In this document: piece by piece, positions 37,401 to 56,073 of the stretch | Position numbering within the stretch: the stretch's first letter is position 1 | Layout of the letters: the number at the start of each line of letters is the position of its first letter | NCBI GenBank assembly: GCA_046538485.1 | Contig: JBKHIT010000013.1 | Coordinates: 26,271-90,270, forward strand | Reading direction: 5' to 3' | Length of the DNA: 64,000 nt | Source of the DNA: Candidatus Brocadiia bacterium | GTDB taxonomy: Bacteria > Planctomycetota > Brocadiia > SM23-32 | The notes under the pieces: generated by a model | Database searches by the model: none | Told to the model about the DNA's origin: nothing | What the model saw: the letters and a program-made list of their open reading frames with translations, nothing else | Position numbers and translations under genes: made by a program

Positions 37401-38658
37401 GAAGGAATTCTACAGGAACAAAGACGCGCTCGAAGGGCTCCGTGAAGGCACCGCGGAGGAAGAAGGCGAGTTGGATCTCGAGGGAGATGATGGCGGCCTC
37501 GATATAGAACTTGGGGAGGAGGACAAAGAAGAAACCGAGATTGCGCAACGGATCGAAGAACAGAAGAAACGTCTCCGCTACGGATTCCACTACGAACGGA
37601 GGCGAATCTTCGATGCCGCCCGGTTGCTCCATAGCCTCCCGCCGCCGAAGGGCAATTACCCCGTTCTCCTGGTCAAAGTCGACAGAGCTATACCGGGGTT
37701 CCGTCTGTTCAACCGCTACGATTTTATCTTCGATATCAACAAACTCGTTCATCTTGACACCAGCCGTTACCGGTTCATTGGCGTCGCAGGTTGCGATTCG
37801 ATCGTGCTGCGCGATGAGACAATACGTGCTCTGACATCCTGGCTTCGCGATGGGCCCAATCTGCTCTATGTCCGGGGGTGGGTTACGTCATCGAATTCGG
37901 CGGAGGCAAGCACAGCCGCCGACCACGACGGAGAACTCAGAGAAGATTGGCCCTGGGAAAACAGCATCGCATTTTCGGACGGGGTTTACCGATTAAAAGA
38001 CAGCAGCACCGTTTCAAAGGCAGCTGGAGGCGACTCTGAAGAGACAGAGCTGGCATTGTGGCAGCCGGATGGTTTCAAAGGCGCTGTTCTTTTTGACAAC
38101 GCGAAACTGGAATCATCTGAACGCCGGCCTATCTTGAAAAAAGTCGCCGGGTCGATCGGAATCGAGCTGGAAATTGACGGTCCCGCCGGAATTCAGCTTG
38201 TGGAAATGGATAAACTGACCGGTGCCGCGGCGCCACGGCGCGTTCCCGAACCTCTTCAGTTGAAAGGCGTGGAAGCTCTCACCGGCGAGCCGGGTCCGCT
38301 CGTCGGAAACCGATCCGGCGCGGGGATCGTTTGCGATAACTATGCCGGACAGTTCGTCGCGAGTTTTCATGGAATCAATGTGCTCACCCGAAAACCCATC
38401 CGGGCCGCTGAGCCGATCCCGAAAGGTTTGAAAGTGCACTGCGATGGTCTGGTCCAGGCGACCTCTATTACGGGCGCCGCTGAAGTGCGCTGCACGGGCG
38501 TTGAGATGCGTGATTTCACCGAGGATGAAGAACGTGAGAAATGGATCCTTTTCGGCGGGTCCGAGGGGTTCGCGGCCGTTGAAGATGATAGAACAAACCA
38601 CATCGTGTATTTTATCCGCTCGTCAAAGCCCATTTTCATTCGTCAAGCAAAACCATGA
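34444..38658 (+). CDS. Secreted HEAT-repeat protein with C-terminal putative GH42-like catalytic and trimerisation-like region
   Basis: Signal peptide (..QSARA). HEAT repeats. DGIVLGEE and AWKHWALE...YIK motifs. YRFIGV...ETIRALTSWLRDGPNLLYV. Paralogue of 3-3848. Confidence 0.7.
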   Translation: MKLAHNFLLRRLTVLSVLVLLAVSLVQSARAEGRPFRIVLPAPGRIKGRPTTHEKNSVCLAHWLRDRFRADPRVRIVDQGWSGPVVGNLRSAKWASPPRNFLKTVSHYFPTDAVVEFGSRDEQFVLKLHLTDRPAPAELTIKEDQSSKQFFQKTTDFLLTELDLPAESEKSLAEPLGVPSRTLRAVYLSLQQVPNWKYTTAEPRIEMLKPHLKHVEKSPLVAYSIVKAGEKLTTEHKEAKKPESVMRVVRAVFPFLLGTEREKTAYKFLRRNQHNRDWFEEDFLKMIKPLATDEMDKMLGGPGGLGGGVETGQSEGPGPGSSSPLGRLVAYKEWSRAQRAGALRCLGVLKSEKAFSEILKCASHEDPVVRCAVASALQFFESEKSQKRLRKLATDKDLSVRLAAGYALWKQEEQVEGLLPLARKVLERHSGNARALKIISQTGEKQDNALLWELTRSKDPDLAVRSARRLFELGDVDDEQMLELLTSHSSSVVQAALENLKTDASSAIVERVFVLANGPFGELADVARSALRQLCPDDPSERRRFELRYEHLYVRRQIIRKLAELGDQENIEALEEACGNSHPHARAYALKRLAEISPERAAEAMGPLLTDRHRWIQLRAAAVASKVARPEDAKTIKAAIEKAADKSTRLYLKDALAKAEDKPAPEPARGANRIDSRRLLPSLCGTGPYAPKSPMQLYYQLHLPKEKGGYIKEAHDKGKVMITRCNSSMKGDPARVLFHPYWQDGFWLGMESEFMGRLDTVDGIVLGEETMYFFPKVTWRLGGWRYFCRDAGIDPDRVKGDKSNLNKYEMRAWKHWALERSIEGFNMAADYIKLRFGKLRPGFCVGTFMPHQAGPNPADLDWRFDVAGGYYYHTSNRRMYSRVRRFKTLWPDRHALWLVYGCGAAGGFSAVKYNRKVPENPLSNRRYRGYADAVSVWLAGGMPGWFSSWLFTRRDVDESGTWVGPESIYKESEILDEGIRTCFSGLKEFYRNKDALEGLREGTAEEEGELDLEGDDGGLDIELGEEDKEETEIAQRIEEQKKRLRYGFHYERRRIFDAARLLHSLPPPKGNYPVLLVKVDRAIPGFRLFNRYDFIFDINKLVHLDTSRYRFIGVAGCDSIVLRDETIRALTSWLRDGPNLLYVRGWVTSSNSAEASTAADHDGELREDWPWENSIAFSDGVYRLKDSSTVSKAAGGDSEETELALWQPDGFKGAVLFDNAKLESSERRPILKKVAGSIGIELEIDGPAGIQLVEMDKLTGAAAPRRVPEPLQLKGVEALTGEPGPLVGNRSGAGIVCDNYAGQFVASFHGINVLTRKPIRAAEPIPKGLKVHCDGLVQATSITGAAEVRCTGVEMRDFTEDEEREKWILFGGSEGFAAVEDDRTNHIVYFIRSSKPIFIRQAKP

Positions 38659-51477: not shown

Positions 51478-51511
51478 TAGGCCGGGCGCCCACTGTCAAG
51501 GCGCAGAATGC

Positions 51512-51540
51512 TTGACCTTTTTTGGTTTCTTAACTATACT
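51512..51540 (+). promoter_or_regulatory. tRNA promoter
   Basis: TTGACC-N17-TATACT. Confidence 0.75.
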
Positions 51541-51558
51541 TTCCAGAGACGAATCAGC

Positions 51559-51635
51559 ACCCCCTTAGCTCAGTTTGGCAGAGCAACGGATTCTTAATCC
51601 GTGGGTCCGGGGTTCGAGTCCCCGAGGGGGTACCA
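51559..51635 (+). tRNA. trnK: tRNA-Lys (anticodon CTT)
   Basis: Acceptor ACCCCCT/AGGGGGT, D arm GCTC/GAGC, anticodon arm ACGGA-TTCTTAA-TCCGT, GTTCGAG T-loop, encoded CCA. Confidence 0.95.
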
Positions 51636-51798
51636 TTCACTTCATTATTGGAAGCTCTTGCCAGGCAAGGGCTTCCAGTTTTTGTTCGATCGTTTGCCGT
51701 TGTGGACTGCGTATCCGACTGCCAAACCGGCCAAGAAGCTTATGTAGCACAGCCTCTCCCGCGCACCCCATGTAGCACAGGCTCCTTGGGCTCCATAG

Positions 51799-52540
51799 TT
51801 AATATGAAGGCCGTCCCTCCTGTAAGATTTGTGGTGATGTTGAGAGTCATTTTTCTCACAAGGAGAAACGGCCCAATGGTTGAGTCTAATGTGTTGCGCA
51901 GAAATGGCAAGCGTATCGTAATCGGTTTAGGCGATCGGGTATACGTCGGATTGGACGTGCACAAGAAAAATATCAATGTCGTTGTGTGGAGAGACAGGCG
52001 AAAGGTAGCCGAGTGGCTGAGTCCAAGTTCGCCGCGGGCTCTGGTTGCCAGCCTCAAGCCGCTGGGTGCGGCTGCCGAAAAAGCCGTCTACGAAGCGGGA
52101 CCGTGCGGATTCGAACTGTATCAGCCGGAGCGTTTCGAGGTGCACAGGCAAGTATCGACTATGGTCGGTCTTGTGCCGCGCTTTGCCAGCAGCGGGGAAA
52201 GGCACACAGACGAGGGTCTTATCAAAGCCGGCAGGGAAAGCTTGCGCTCGATGCTTGTGGATGCGGCCTGGCGGTGGGTAGGTTTAGAGAACGCTGCAAG
52301 CAAAACGTTCGCAAGGCTGGTGGGTAATACTGGCTGCAAGCAAAAAGTGATCGTAGGGATGGCCCGAAAGCTTTGCGTGAATCTCTGGTGCATGCGCACG
52401 CGGGGTGAGCGATATCGTCCGGGAGGATAACACAGAGACTCCCGGCTGATAAGAACAGTAATCACAATTCAGATAGTAAACGAGAAAGGACAAACACAAG
52501 ATGGAATGGATTTTGGTCTTGACAAACGGCCTCATAGGAG
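51799..52540 (+). mobile_element. IS110-family (IS1111-like) element, internally deleted, inserted in a REP-like palindrome
   Basis: Subterminal IRs ATGAAGGCCGT / ACGGCCTCAT. AG present at both junctions. Flanks rejoin to match the empty site at 56016-56073. Confidence 0.85.
51876..52430 (+). pseudogene. IS110 recombinase/transposase with in-frame internal deletion (184 aa)
   Basis: YVGLDVHKK and YEAG (N-terminal DEDD part) are fused directly to PERF...GLVP...SSG...KAG...MARKL (C-terminal part). The D..D and IPGVG region is missing. Confidence 0.85.
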
Positions 52541-52896
52541 CCTCGTGCGGAGAAGGCTCCAGCCTGTGAACCGGGTCGTCAGCCCCGGACTGCTCTTCCA
52601 GGCTCACTTTTGTGGTGGGCCTCCAGCCCACTATGTTTTTCTTTGCGCTGTTAACCCAGGGCTCCGAAGACCTTCAGCCTTCTGCACCATGGGCTATGAT
52701 ATTTTGACTTTTCAGGGCTGCTTTGCTGCTATAGTCGGTCATCTCCGCTTTTCTGCACTGGTTTGCTATGGTAGGTTTGTTGCTGGAGTCTGAAAATCCT
52801 TTCTTGTATTACTTTAACACGAATAAAACTTACCGAAGGGAATTGACAGCTGGCCTTATCGTTGGGGACACTATCTGGAGCAAGGAGTCAAGACGA

Positions 52897-54486
52897 ATGG
52901 GAGAAACCCTGTACAACGGAATTGAACTACCGAACGAATGGCCGCCGCGGAATCTGGGCCCTGCTGGGTATGATCCGATGCCGGTGCCGTATCTTGAAAC
53001 ATCACCCCCGGTCATACCGATCGACGTGGGAAGACAACTTTTTGTTGACGACTTTCTGATCGCAGAAACCAGCATGCAACGTGTCTTTCATGCGGCGGAG
53101 AAGTTCGAGAACAATCCGGTCATGAAGCCGGAAACATCCCTGGAACGAGAAACGAGCGGCGTCTTTCCTGCTGCTGTCCCGAAGGACGGCGGCGTCTGGT
53201 GGGATCCTGCTGAACGACGTTTCAAGATGTGGTACGAGGCCGGGTGGTGCGGTGCACTTAGCTACGCCGTCAGTGCGGACGGCCTGGTCTGGTCGCGGCC
53301 GGAACTCGATGTCAACCCGCCCACCAACCAGGTCGTGCAGGGGCTCGTCGGCGACTCGGGTGCCGTCGTGCTTGACCTCGATAGCGAGAATCCCCGGCAA
53401 CGCTATAAGATGTTCCAACGGGAATGCAATGCGGCCATCGGTATGGGGCGTGGTCCTGGGAACAGCCTGGTTTCGGCCGACGGCATCCACTGGAGTGCCC
53501 CGGTGAAGACAGGACCTGTAGGGGACCGCAGTACGATGTTCTACAACGCGTTTCGGAAGAAATGGGTCTACAGTATCCGCAGCAGCCGGGCCGGGATCGG
53601 CCGCGCCAGGGAATATCGGGAGCACGATGATTTTCTCCAGGGCGCCACCTGGACCGATACTGAGAAGGTCTTCTGGTGCGGCGCTGATCGCCACGATACA
53701 CCGGACCCGGAGATTGGCGATCCCGCGCAGCTCTACAACCTGACCGCGGTGGCCTACGAAAGCATCATGCTCGGCCTCTTCGAGATTCACCTTGGTCCCA
53801 GCAACGAGAAGTGCAAGGAGCAGCGGCGTCCGAAGATCACGGAACTGAAAACTGCCTTCAGCCGTGATGGATTTCACTGGCACCGCCCGGACCGCAACGT
53901 CTTCATCGAAGCGGTCCGCAATCCCGATGCCTGGGACCGGGGCTACGTGCAGTCAGTGGGGGGCATTTGCACTATCCACGATGATGAACTGTGGTTCTAT
54001 TATACGGGTTTTGCGGGTGACTCTGGCAATGCGACGGACCGGTTTGGGTTTCCTGCCGCCCTGTATTCGAACGGATGCACCGGGATCGCCAAACTCCGCC
54101 GTGACGGTTTTGCTTCGATGCATGCGAACGAGGAGGAAACCGTGCTGCTCACCCGCCCGGTTACCTTTTCCGGGAGCCATCTCTTCGTCAACGTGGACAA
54201 CCCGAACGGCGAGCTGGGCGTGGAACTGTGTGATAAGAACGGCACGGTGCTGTCGGGCTTCAGTAAAGTGGACTGTCTGCCTGTGGGGACGGATTCCACC
54301 AGGGTGCGAATCCAATGGGATGACCGATCGAGTGTTGCGGAGTTTGCCGGGCGTCCTGTCCGCTTCCGGTTCTATCTGCGTGATGGGGACCTGTATGGCT
54401 TCTGGGTAAGCGGTTCCGCACGCGGTGAGTCCAGTGGCTACATCGCGGCCGGCGGACCAGGCTTTACCAGCAACCGCGATCTCTGA
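52897..54486 (+). CDS. GH32/GH43-clan-like five-bladed beta-propeller glycosidase
   Basis: RQLFVDDFLI, FKMWY, SADGLVW / SADGIHW / SRDGFHW repeats, LRRDGFAS. AAGGAG RBS before the ATG at 52897. Confidence 0.75.
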   Translation: MGETLYNGIELPNEWPPRNLGPAGYDPMPVPYLETSPPVIPIDVGRQLFVDDFLIAETSMQRVFHAAEKFENNPVMKPETSLERETSGVFPAAVPKDGGVWWDPAERRFKMWYEAGWCGALSYAVSADGLVWSRPELDVNPPTNQVVQGLVGDSGAVVLDLDSENPRQRYKMFQRECNAAIGMGRGPGNSLVSADGIHWSAPVKTGPVGDRSTMFYNAFRKKWVYSIRSSRAGIGRAREYREHDDFLQGATWTDTEKVFWCGADRHDTPDPEIGDPAQLYNLTAVAYESIMLGLFEIHLGPSNEKCKEQRRPKITELKTAFSRDGFHWHRPDRNVFIEAVRNPDAWDRGYVQSVGGICTIHDDELWFYYTGFAGDSGNATDRFGFPAALYSNGCTGIAKLRRDGFASMHANEEETVLLTRPVTFSGSHLFVNVDNPNGELGVELCDKNGTVLSGFSKVDCLPVGTDSTRVRIQWDDRSSVAEFAGRPVRFRFYLRDGDLYGFWVSGSARGESSGYIAAGGPGFTSNRDL

Positions 54487-54934
54487 CCGCTACGGCGGAC
54501 GAAGGTAACAACATCGATGAAATAACGGCGTGAAGAACACGGGACCTGCGCTCCGAGGGACCGGACGAGGCCACGTCGTCTGCGCTGGGCGCTTCCGGCT
54601 ACCGGGTCCGAAAGGGGACTTCGCATCACCACCGAACGATTACGTCCCTGGCCCATACGATTGGTGCTGCGCCCGAAATGGTGGCCTGGCTCGAAAACGA
54701 ACACCCGGAAATGATTTGAGAATTACGTTCGTGGACACAGATATGGGGTATTCGGAGGGGGCCGGGTTGGTATGTGGTATGTGTTTAGGTCCCGGGTGAA
54801 AGCTGCGAGCTGAGACGGGAGAGGACTTTTTGCGTGCGGGGCCTGGGGACGGTAGAATGTTGAGGGAGATTGGAACAGTAGAGACGCAAAAAGGAAAAAA
54901 ACCGTACGATGTCCCCGGATATCGGAGCCGCGAA

Positions 54935-55669
54935 ATGGGAAAAGGGTCCTCAAAAGAGATGGTGAAGGGTAAAAAAATCTATCTTGTGCTTACATGGTTA
55001 ATCCGCATCTCGCTTCTCTTTGCCATCCTGGGAGCTATTTGGGAACGAGCGTGGATGCCGCTATTTGTCAGTTCCCTTTCATTGCTACTTTCCTTTCTGC
55101 CTTTATTTATGAAGAGGAACTACAGGATTAACCTTCCGGGAGAGATCCAAATTATAATTGTCCTCTTCGTATATGCGGCCCTTTTTCTAGGGATGGCCAG
55201 GGAATGGTATGCACGTTTCCGCTGGTGGGATTCGATGATGCACAGTTTCTCTGGAATTGCACTGGGCTTTGCGGGTTTTATGATTCTGTATGTCCTTCAC
55301 AAAAGTGGGAAGTTGGAGGCAAAGCCTTCCCTTATAGTCCTCTTTTCGTTTTGCTTTGCAGTTGCAATGGGAACCGTTTGGGAAATATTGGAATTCGCGA
55401 CTGACACCTATTTTACCCAAGTGAATATGCAACGTACCAGAACCATTGAAGAAGTTATCCAATATGGAAGTACACGGCTTGTAATTTATGATACGATGTG
55501 GGATTTGGTACTCAACACCATAGGAGCCTTTCTGGCTTCCCTCGGCGGTTACATATACCTCAAGAAAGGCGAAATATTTCTTTTCGATAAACTGGTCAAC
55601 CAGTTCGAAGAAGTGAATCCGCAACTGTTCAAGCGGAGGCACCGAAGGCACGAGGATAAGGCAGGGTGA
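54935..55669 (+). CDS. Integral membrane protein (DUF2238-like); start uncertain (54935 or 54959)
   Basis: Multiple TM helices. WWD..MH, WE..EF..D, DTMWDL..N motifs. Confidence 0.65.
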   Translation: MGKGSSKEMVKGKKIYLVLTWLIRISLLFAILGAIWERAWMPLFVSSLSLLLSFLPLFMKRNYRINLPGEIQIIIVLFVYAALFLGMAREWYARFRWWDSMMHSFSGIALGFAGFMILYVLHKSGKLEAKPSLIVLFSFCFAVAMGTVWEILEFATDTYFTQVNMQRTRTIEEVIQYGSTRLVIYDTMWDLVLNTIGAFLASLGGYIYLKKGEIFLFDKLVNQFEEVNPQLFKRRHRRHEDKAG

Positions 55670-55691
55670 TATACTGATATTGTGTTGAGTC

Positions 55692-55756
55692 TTGGGGATT
55701 GGGCATTGGGGTCAGACCGGGAGCAGTTGTTGTTAGTTGCTCGTTGCTGGTTGTTG
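55692..55756. repeat. Short heptamer tandem repeats
   Basis: ttgggga ttgggca ttggggt, then gttgtta gttgctc gttgctg gttgttg. Confidence 0.5.
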
Positions 55757-56015
55757 AAGGATATGAGTGAAGGGTGTGAGGGGCGGGCCATCAGAAGTGT
55801 TTCCGCGTAAATAAGTTACGGCAAAAAGCTTGATATATGGCTTAGAGGAGCCATCCTGCCTGAGGCGGATAAATGTGACTCCAAAAACAGGCTGCTAAAG
55901 CGGGCGGACGGACGGAGTACAGAAGACAGATGACAGCGACGGTGCTGGGGCAGGAGGCGAAGCGGTGGCGACCAGCGCACTCCGGTAGGAGCGGCGGTCG
56001 GGCCTTGTGGTCCGA

Positions 56016-56073
56016 TTCACAGGCTGGAGCCTTCTCCGCACGAGGCTATGGAGCTCAAGGGCCTGTGCCACAT
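56016..56073 (-). repeat. REP-like palindrome: empty copy of the IS target site
   Basis: Minus strand reads ATGTGGCACAGGCCCTTGAGCTCCATAGCCTCGTGCGGAGAAGGCTCCAGCCTGTGAA, near-identical to 51770-51798 joined to 52541-52570. Confidence 0.85.

Follow-up and report, generated by a model that had tools for sequence, protein, structure and literature searches.

A 742-bp IS1111-type element with a broken recombinase gene and apparently no guide RNA, present in two members of a repeat family in a Brocadiia genome

The DNA examined here, called the window below, is a 64,000-nt stretch of a Candidatus Brocadiia bacterium genome (C19:26271-90270, where C19 is one of the 143 contigs of the assembly, the smallest being 3454 nt). 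On its plus strand, positions 51799-52540 hold a discrete 742-bp element with AG on either side (51797-51798 and 52539-52540). This element belongs to the IS110 family of insertion sequences (IS) and has the layout of the IS1111 type. It represents a known kind of element in broken form, and the mobile-element type is an ordinary one; what makes it worth describing is only that two identical copies exist despite the absence of an enzyme and, apparently, of a guide RNA. With moderate confidence, we regard it as a non-autonomous deletion derivative of an IS1111-type element that has neither recombinase nor guide RNA and was moved in trans. The element and its target are made up of the following features.

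51770-51798, plus strand: left half of the target repeat (family A), with the core AG at its end, 51797-51798 (sequence reading, BLAST, core scan)
51799-52540, plus strand: 742-bp non-autonomous IS1111-type (IS110 family) element (sequence reading, BLAST, second copy, sibling ends)
52539-52540, plus strand: second copy of the core AG (sequence reading, BLAST)
52541-52570, plus strand: right half of the target repeat (sequence reading, BLAST)
56016-56073, minus strand: empty member of the same repeat family, with its core (CT on the plus strand) at 56046-56047 (BLAST, core scan, fold)

At the left junction, ..GGGCTCCATAG is followed by TTAATATG, the first base of the element being 51799, from which the inner side can be read further as TTAATATGAAGGCCGT.. 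The right junction joins ..CATAGGAG to CCTCGTGCGGAG, with 52540 as the last base of the element, and its element side can also be read as ..ACGGCCTCATAGGAG before CCTCGTGCGGAG. When the two flanks are joined, they reproduce the uninterrupted repeat at 56016-56073 on the minus strand, 3.5 kb from the element. A BLAST search of the whole assembly found the right flank to match the reverse complement of 56016-56073 exactly over 32 nt, and about 3-4 of 29 positions, one indel included, differ by eye on the left. Agreement of this extent greatly exceeds what chance would give, but solely because a repeat family is the target. The boundaries are backed independently in three ways: by an identical second copy, by eight fragments of sibling elements at contig ends, and by the geometry of the ends in relatives. 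The core AG has the same position in the two copies, the eight sibling ends and the relatives. Insertion is thus site-specific, with a short core at either boundary and without a long duplication of the target, as is typical of the IS110 family.

A first-pass annotation of the window had already proposed the pairing of filled and empty target sites, the limits 51799-52540 with AG as core, the assignment to the IS110/IS1111 type, and a target resembling repetitive extragenic palindromic (REP) sequences. All four proposals hold. The first is borne out by BLAST with the flanked element and with 56016-56073, the second by the second copy, the sibling ends and the end geometry of relatives, the third by a match to PF02371, sub-terminal repeats and the longer downstream end, and the fourth by a family of 17 curated sites.

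The second copy, at C13:53081-53822 on the minus strand, is identical at 742 of 742 positions and sits at the same insertion position in another member of family A. Next to the element, the flanks of the two copies agree base for base over 15 nt (left) and 12 nt (right); farther out they diverge. Because two base-for-base identical copies occupy different members of the repeat, recent copying in trans is the most likely origin, and we infer that the 742-bp element is mobilized in this way. It has the hallmarks of non-autonomous, MITE-like elements (MITE, miniature inverted-repeat transposable element), since both ends are kept, there is no working transposase, and more than one copy is present.

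That the element can no longer produce its own enzyme is evident from the coding region, in which two features are distinguished.

51876-52430, plus strand: 184-aa in-frame remnant of a 358-aa recombinase, with residues about 80-254 missing (Pfam match, homologue search, alignment)
52113-52121, plus strand: deletion junction in the recombinase gene, with microhomology of E-L-Y codons (alignment; 85%-identical metagenome contig)

The 184-aa open reading frame (ORF), the only long one in the element, has a single Pfam match, to PF02371 (E = 9.8e-10, 39.1 bits, cut-off 21.3). It gives no match to PF01548, the N-terminal DEDD/RuvC-like domain, of which only the first part (GLDVH, YEAG) is left. 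Full-length homologues at 58-87% identity carry PF01548, and the best longer one, P0001 (358 aa), has both PF01548 and PF02371 and is 87% identical over the aligned part. The ORF is therefore a broken member of the family and not a non-member. According to the alignment, it corresponds to the 358-aa protein minus residues about 80-254, or about 174 residues. What is kept comprises GLDVH, YEAG and the C-terminal SG motif, whose residues S280 and G281 are invariant in the homologue alignment (A1); what is gone comprises the second half of the RuvC-like domain, the coiled coil and the middle of the protein. The deletion falls at two E-L-Y motifs, so the reading frame was kept automatically. Its loss of about 174 of 358 residues means that the element cannot make the recombinase, a defect that the first-pass annotation did not mention.

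Metagenome contigs from four coded runs of two studies (a microbial mat and a salt lake) were also consulted. One contig, 85% identical, has a loose end before 52116 and runs through the deletion junction, where ..TAMNFILE is followed by LYQ.., and thus full-length forms exist. The 184-aa form itself was found only in the two contigs of this genome within a collection of 5.8 billion proteins. Contig joints that skip the 742 bp were considered as an excision product or empty allele and set aside, because one side of the match spans just 25-28 nt, at 85% likeness, and the joints could derive from other members of the repeat.

Relatives of the element provide the standard against which its non-coding ends can be judged. 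They come from metagenomes and genomes at 38-48% identity, with the addition of one from G506, a genome of the same bacterial family, at 57%. In 20 relatives at 38-57% identity, the right end contains a covarying two-loop bridge RNA whose guides match the flanks of the element that carries it. An alignment of 19 of them has four helices with 90.7% of cells paired, and 12 of 16 pairs are changed on both sides. None of 500 shuffles was as good, and all slid controls scored far lower. In order, the target loop consists of AG and about 6 nt of the right flank as their reverse complement, enclosed by a stem, of a GUGC..GCAC hairpin, and of a stretch matching the left flank, AG and the first 2 nt of the IS. 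The donor loop repeats this plan with the reverse complement of AG plus the left end of the IS, a second hairpin, and then AAUAGCAG (the right end of the IS plus AG). The relative in G506 carries AAUAGGAG in place of AAUAGCAG, and its end is CATAGG-AG, like that of the element in the window; in this case, the donor-loop guide covaries with the IS end.

Guides and flanks could be compared at nine loci at which both flanks are definable. On the left, cognate guides and their own flanks have a mean of 7.7 nt in common, as against 3.6 nt for 70 non-cognate pairings; on the right, the means are 6.6 nt and 2.8 nt, and no non-cognate pairing has a right-guide match of at least 7 nt. The weak cognate cases are the right guides of three loci (L015, L017 and L095), which match only 3-5 nt. 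Covariation and guide-flank matches together define the right-end bridge RNA of this uncharacterized clade of 358-aa recombinases. Its plan consists of a right target guide, a GUGC..GCAC hairpin and a left target guide, repeated for the donor, around the core AG.

The 57%-identical relative (L179, on C155 of G506, reverse strand) has a donor loop whose 3' side agrees with the whole of the right junction over 14 nt (ATAGGAG plus AATGACG), far longer than a 2-nt "handshake." The flank concerned is the edge of the GTGGCACAGGC palindrome, which is abundant in the genome of the window.

When covariance model R1 of the RNA was run against the assembly, it found one strong match, at C75:7789-7915 (71.5 bits, E = 8e-17), just downstream of the recombinase gene on that contig. 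The surrounding region, C75:6289-9415 (locus L174, about 195-1890), holds a full-length IS110-family element that is 43% identical to the remnant and whose right end encodes the bridge RNA in complete form. The last 25 nt of that end (..GATTTGACAAAGGGCTACATAGCAG) are present as two tandem copies separated by 29 nt. This element was considered as a helper and rejected, because in a hand comparison its left guide could pair with the family A sites with one mismatch and its right guide does not fit them.

The non-coding ends of the element in the window resolve into the following parts.

51799-51875, plus strand: left non-coding end, 77 nt (sequence reading, relatives, fold)
51800-51805, plus strand: TAATAT, a -10-like hexamer; joining of the ends would put it at 17 nt from the right-end TTGACA (spacing counted by hand)
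51808-51814, plus strand: left sub-terminal inverted repeat AGGCCGT, longer in relatives (repeat search)
51809-51873, plus strand: left-end RNA stem in which GGCCGU and CUCCUGU pair with the AAGGAG ribosome-binding site and with ACGGCC just before the ATG (fold; alike in relatives)
52431-52474, plus strand: lineage-specific part of the right non-coding end, without a guide-like match to the target (match search, metagenome contigs)
52475-52540, plus strand: 66-nt right tail common to siblings in another repeat (sibling ends, metagenome contigs)
52519-52524, plus strand: TTGACA, the -35 half of a putative circle-junction promoter (sequence reading; TTGAC conserved in relatives)
52526-52532, plus strand: right sub-terminal inverted repeat ACGGCCT (repeat search)

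Two traits of the IS1111 type are apparent. Sub-terminal inverted repeats of the expected 7-17 bp are present (AGGCCGT and ACGGCCT), those of relatives being longer, e.g., AGGCCGTTCC and GGAACGGCCT. The downstream non-coding end is also the longer of the two, at 110 nt versus 77 nt; in relatives with a definable right end, that end spans 207-434 nt, and left ends are roughly 75-125 nt. If the ends were joined, they would form a predicted TTGACA-17-TAATAT promoter. In one metagenomic relative (L018:1400-1620), the right end abuts a left end across a single AG (..CATAGCAG followed by GTAATATG..), an arrangement to be expected of a circle junction, of a tandem dimer or of a wrapped-around assembly.

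None of the features expected of a bridge RNA (also termed seekRNA), namely a structured RNA in one end with guides to target and donor, could be recognized in the element. With filters off, R1 gave at best 3.1 bits within 51700-52650. The right end, taken as a 113-nt stretch, folds no better than shuffled sequences (z = -0.41). It contains no Watson-Crick match of at least 6 nt to the target, which 251 of 500 shuffles had, and exact matches of at least 6 nt between element and target occur only in the coding sequence or the left end. Where wobble pairs were tolerated, the best duplex between right end and target was 8 bp, a length reached by 185 of 500 shuffles. An Rfam scan of 51500-52800 with E up to 10 produced tRNA and chance matches only. 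The right-end RNA module of the clade is absent from this copy, and most probably the element no longer encodes that bridge RNA. Two further searches looked beyond the element. A regular-expression search for an orphan target loop yielded only noise, the model search of the assembly being the better test, and a partial R1 match at 37450-37496 of the window (12.3 bits, E = 0.033, model positions 17-61) is probably due to chance.

Positions 52475-52542 form a separate 68-nt metagenome contig whose depth, although not a copy number, is 162.9 versus about 52 for the interior of the element (about threefold), which indicates that the right tail is common to other copies in the sample. A sibling metagenome contig departs from the element upstream of 52475. 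Only 52431-52474 is private to the lineage, and the element thus looks like a mosaic or a second deletion.

Taken together, these results suggest how the deletion derivative might have arisen and moved. The in-frame deletion removed about 174 of the 358 recombinase residues, and the short right end (110 nt as against 207-434 nt) may have been produced by deletion or recombination. Recombinase would be supplied in trans by full-length siblings, whose ends break the assembly at eight contig ends. Movement would pass through a circular form, as is usual, and the TTGACA-17-TAATAT promoter would be created there by the joining of the ends.

The eight contig ends carry termini of related elements, all with the same AG. 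Among the right ends, those on C107 and C71 are identical to the element over the last 38 nt, and those on C105, C51 and C25 are a variant; the left ends, on C85, C83 and C78, are of variant form. The flanks read ..CAGACGTAG and CCCCGGGCGATCCCGGG.. in all eight; this is another and more frequent repeat, with 51 matches at up to 4 mismatches (uncurated). It had been anticipated that siblings with other boundaries or at unrelated sites would count against the proposed element. The boundaries proved to be the same, and the sites of all eight visible ends belong to another repeat family.

Full-length siblings were not recovered. In the assembly, tblastn finds only C19, C13 and C75, the last with the 43%-identical element. 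When the IS ends were sought as exact patterns, collections of genome contigs and viral contigs gave no matches. Protein-guided locus searches returned, among the matches listed, only relatives at up to 48% identity, and the homologues at 58-87% were not recovered as DNA. Among the genomes searched (those of 41 relatives, 401 from the phylum and 132 from the class), the nearest full-length relative was the one in G506, at 57% identity.

The target of the siblings is itself a repeat family, found at about 50 places in the genome (e.g., C6:26753, C26:70182, C63 and C89) in several sub-types. Its form is ..AGGCCCGTAGGGCC..CAGACGTAGCCCCGGGCGATCCCGGG.., and its core resembles that of family A around TAG/CC, where the slash marks the insertion point.

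Family A was delimited by a scan of the assembly for its 21-nt core. At up to 4 mismatches there were 19 matches, of which 15 were judged by their flanks to be true empty members and 4 were dropped; with the 2 filled sites, the family has 17. The exact 21-nt core occurs in 3 of the 17 sites, and 2 of these 3 are filled. Folded as DNA, the imperfect palindrome of the empty site has moderate structure (-14.6 kcal/mol, z = -1.98). A regular expression for the outer arms gave 96 matches, 51 with a spacer of 2 nt and 9 with a spacer of 32-33 nt, and the palindrome is more abundant in its short form than in the long form that the family A target represents.

Several observations weigh against the reading of the element as a guideless derivative moved by the machinery of its siblings. 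The exact core variant CCATAG/CCTCGTG is present in both filled sites and yet in only 1 of 15 empty ones. The probability of this preference is about 0.02 if sites are taken at random, and it points to a guide tuned to that variant; a model search found no such guide in the element or the assembly. The contig depths of run X1 fit just two copies of the lineage of the element, and hence no full-length parent there, although depth is a weak measure. Other difficulties concern the use of the relatives as a standard. The 30 nt upstream of 52475 in the sibling have no obvious fit to the bridge-RNA model, and the shared tail, also found in active-looking siblings, has ACACAAG where relatives have the donor guide, so that the lineage of the element may be built differently from its relatives. 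The right ends of the full-length siblings are unassembled, so the P0001 lineage is not shown to have the canonical RNA or its end length.

These points give some room to the possibility, which we entertain tentatively, that the guide came from a variant-specific bridge RNA outside the assembly. Such an RNA would have the guides ACGAGGCU and CUCCAUAGUU, and it might stem, for example, from an orphan module or from a full-length parent, either of them rare, missing from the assembled contigs or since lost. The occupancy of the exact CCATAG/CCTCGTG sites speaks for it. So does the systematic lack of full-length IS copies in an assembly whose smallest contig is 3454 nt and in which eight IS ends coincide with contig ends. 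Independent RNA modules are known, moreover, from ISPpu9 and ssr9, as the available passages of PMC12288879 describe. It is weakened by the model search of the assembly, in which R1 finds only the C75 element, with guides judged unfit for this site, and by the X1 unitig depths, which by that weak measure fit two copies of the lineage.

A more specific version of this idea is trans reprogramming, in which a bridge RNA from elsewhere redirects the recombinase of the siblings to a different repeat. The donor loop of this RNA would fit the shared CATAGG-AG and TTAATATG ends, and its target loop would read the different repeat. We consider this proposal rather doubtful; if it were true, donor ends and target choice would be supplied by separate molecules in this genome.

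Alternatively, the bridge RNA of the siblings, programmed for CAGACGT-AG-CCCCGGGCG, might have placed the element in a near-cognate site, which we judge unlikely. To the right of the core, 7 of 9 positions are the same in the two targets, which also have TAG/CC in common. With sibling target guides assumed from the siblings' own target (CCGGGGCU and GACGUAGUU), about 10 contiguous core-proximal positions could pair, including two G-T wobbles, by hand count. These guides are assumed and not seen, however, and about 50 sites of the sibling type were on offer, yet neither of the two copies is in one. Furthermore, the assumed guide cannot distinguish CCTCGTG from the commoner CCTCGCG or CCTTGCG, and both insertions are in the rare exact variant.

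It is quite unlikely, in our view, that the element carries its own guide RNA for this repeat, whether in its right end (110 nt) or in its left end (77 nt), as the first-pass annotation had inferred. A dedicated guide is suggested by the identical core variant in both filled sites, by the visible sibling ends all lying in another repeat, and by the lack of any sign of a full-length parent of the lineage in run X1. Passages of PMC11187229 also give lengths as short as 82-96 nt for IS1111-type seekRNAs. On the other side, 52431-52540 has no model match, no significant fold and no target match of at least 6 nt, which is below the chance level. The 5-mers put forward as guides, ACGAG (52480-52484) and ATGGA (52501-52505 and 52506-52510), lie inside the 66-nt tail shared with other copies and so cannot specify this repeat. 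As for 51799-51875, the left end does fold significantly (z = -2.81), but the stem covers the ribosome-binding site, and relatives show the same pairing, GGCCGTTCCTCC...GGAGGAACGGCC-ATG. Sequestration of this site, which we infer to be a guard against translation of read-through transcripts, is sufficient to explain the structure. Covariation in the non-coding ends, another check that had been suggested, did uncover a bridge RNA in the right ends of relatives, and this RNA is what the element lacks.

Homologous recombination or gene conversion among members of the repeat, in place of transposition, is a very unlikely origin of the second copy. A short conversion tract would leave identical flanks of 15 nt and 12 nt, but guide specificity explains these equally well; the arms of homology measure no more than about 25-30 nt and are imperfect, and active-looking siblings with the same ends are present.

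The core of IS621 is CT, unlike the AG of the present clade, and each guide pair in the clade flanks a conserved GUGC..GCAC hairpin that likewise sets it apart from IS621. With respect to the passages of the IS621 report that were available (Durrant et al. 2024, PMC11208160), the RNA of the relatives is similar in having two loops, strand guides around a 2-nt core, and pairs for target and donor. It differs in position, because these passages place the bridge RNA of the IS110 group mainly in the left end, and that of the clade is in the right end; a passage of the same paper agrees with a right-end location in IS1111. Two further nucleotides that match the partner DNA in relatives resemble the "handshake" guides in passages of PMC13626964.

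The closest parallels are with the IS1111 elements whose seekRNAs have been described (ISEc11, ISPa11 and ISKpn4; Siddiquee et al. 2024, PMC11187229). Judging from passages of that report, the likenesses include sub-terminal inverted repeats, a longer downstream non-coding end, a promoter formed by joining of the ends (predicted here), and a fixed insertion point in a folded repeat, REP being the target of ISPa11. Moreover, the top-strand match is 5' of the bottom-strand match in those seekRNAs and in the RNA of relatives. The copy in the window differs in that it lacks most of the recombinase and any recognizable RNA. The clade recombinase has 358 aa, compared with the 330-350 aa quoted there for IS1111 types, a comparison made by description and not by sequence identity.

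Other non-autonomous systems offer partial analogies. Like ISPpu9 and ssr9 of Pseudomonas putida, as portrayed in passages of Pares-Guillen et al. (2025, PMC12288879), the present case involves an IS110-family element in REPs and separate modules propagated by a transposase. There, it is a small-RNA module that rides; here, it is an element with both ends, no enzyme and apparently no RNA. MITEs and deletion derivatives also retain both ends without a working transposase and occur in more than one identical copy; unlike MITEs, the element is 742 bp long, has a 184-aa in-frame remnant ORF and is present in only two copies. Membership of an RNA-guided family means that it requires both a guide and an enzyme in trans. 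Mobilization of cargo in trans has been shown in the laboratory, according to a passage of PMC11187229. A narrow search of the open-access literature found no description of a natural guideless IS110/IS1111 derivative; what it brought up was the ISPpu9 paper, a review and a paper on a Coxiella MITE. The defective copy therefore serves as a natural test case of whether an element can be moved with protein and guide both in trans, and of whose guide is used.

A few observations concern the surroundings of the element. Directly upstream of its repeat cluster are a tRNA-Lys(CTT) gene at 51559-51635 and then a GC-rich hairpin with a T run (to 51689), and 51742-51757 is a partial copy of the outer arm of the repeat. 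Among copies of the abundant palindrome, the IS target belongs to the less frequent long form, which has a central insert of roughly 31 nt. A 33-nt repeat, consisting of the outer arm plus a ACCGGGTCGTCAG-like tail, is found at 52557-52589 of the window and at about 45 other places in the genome.

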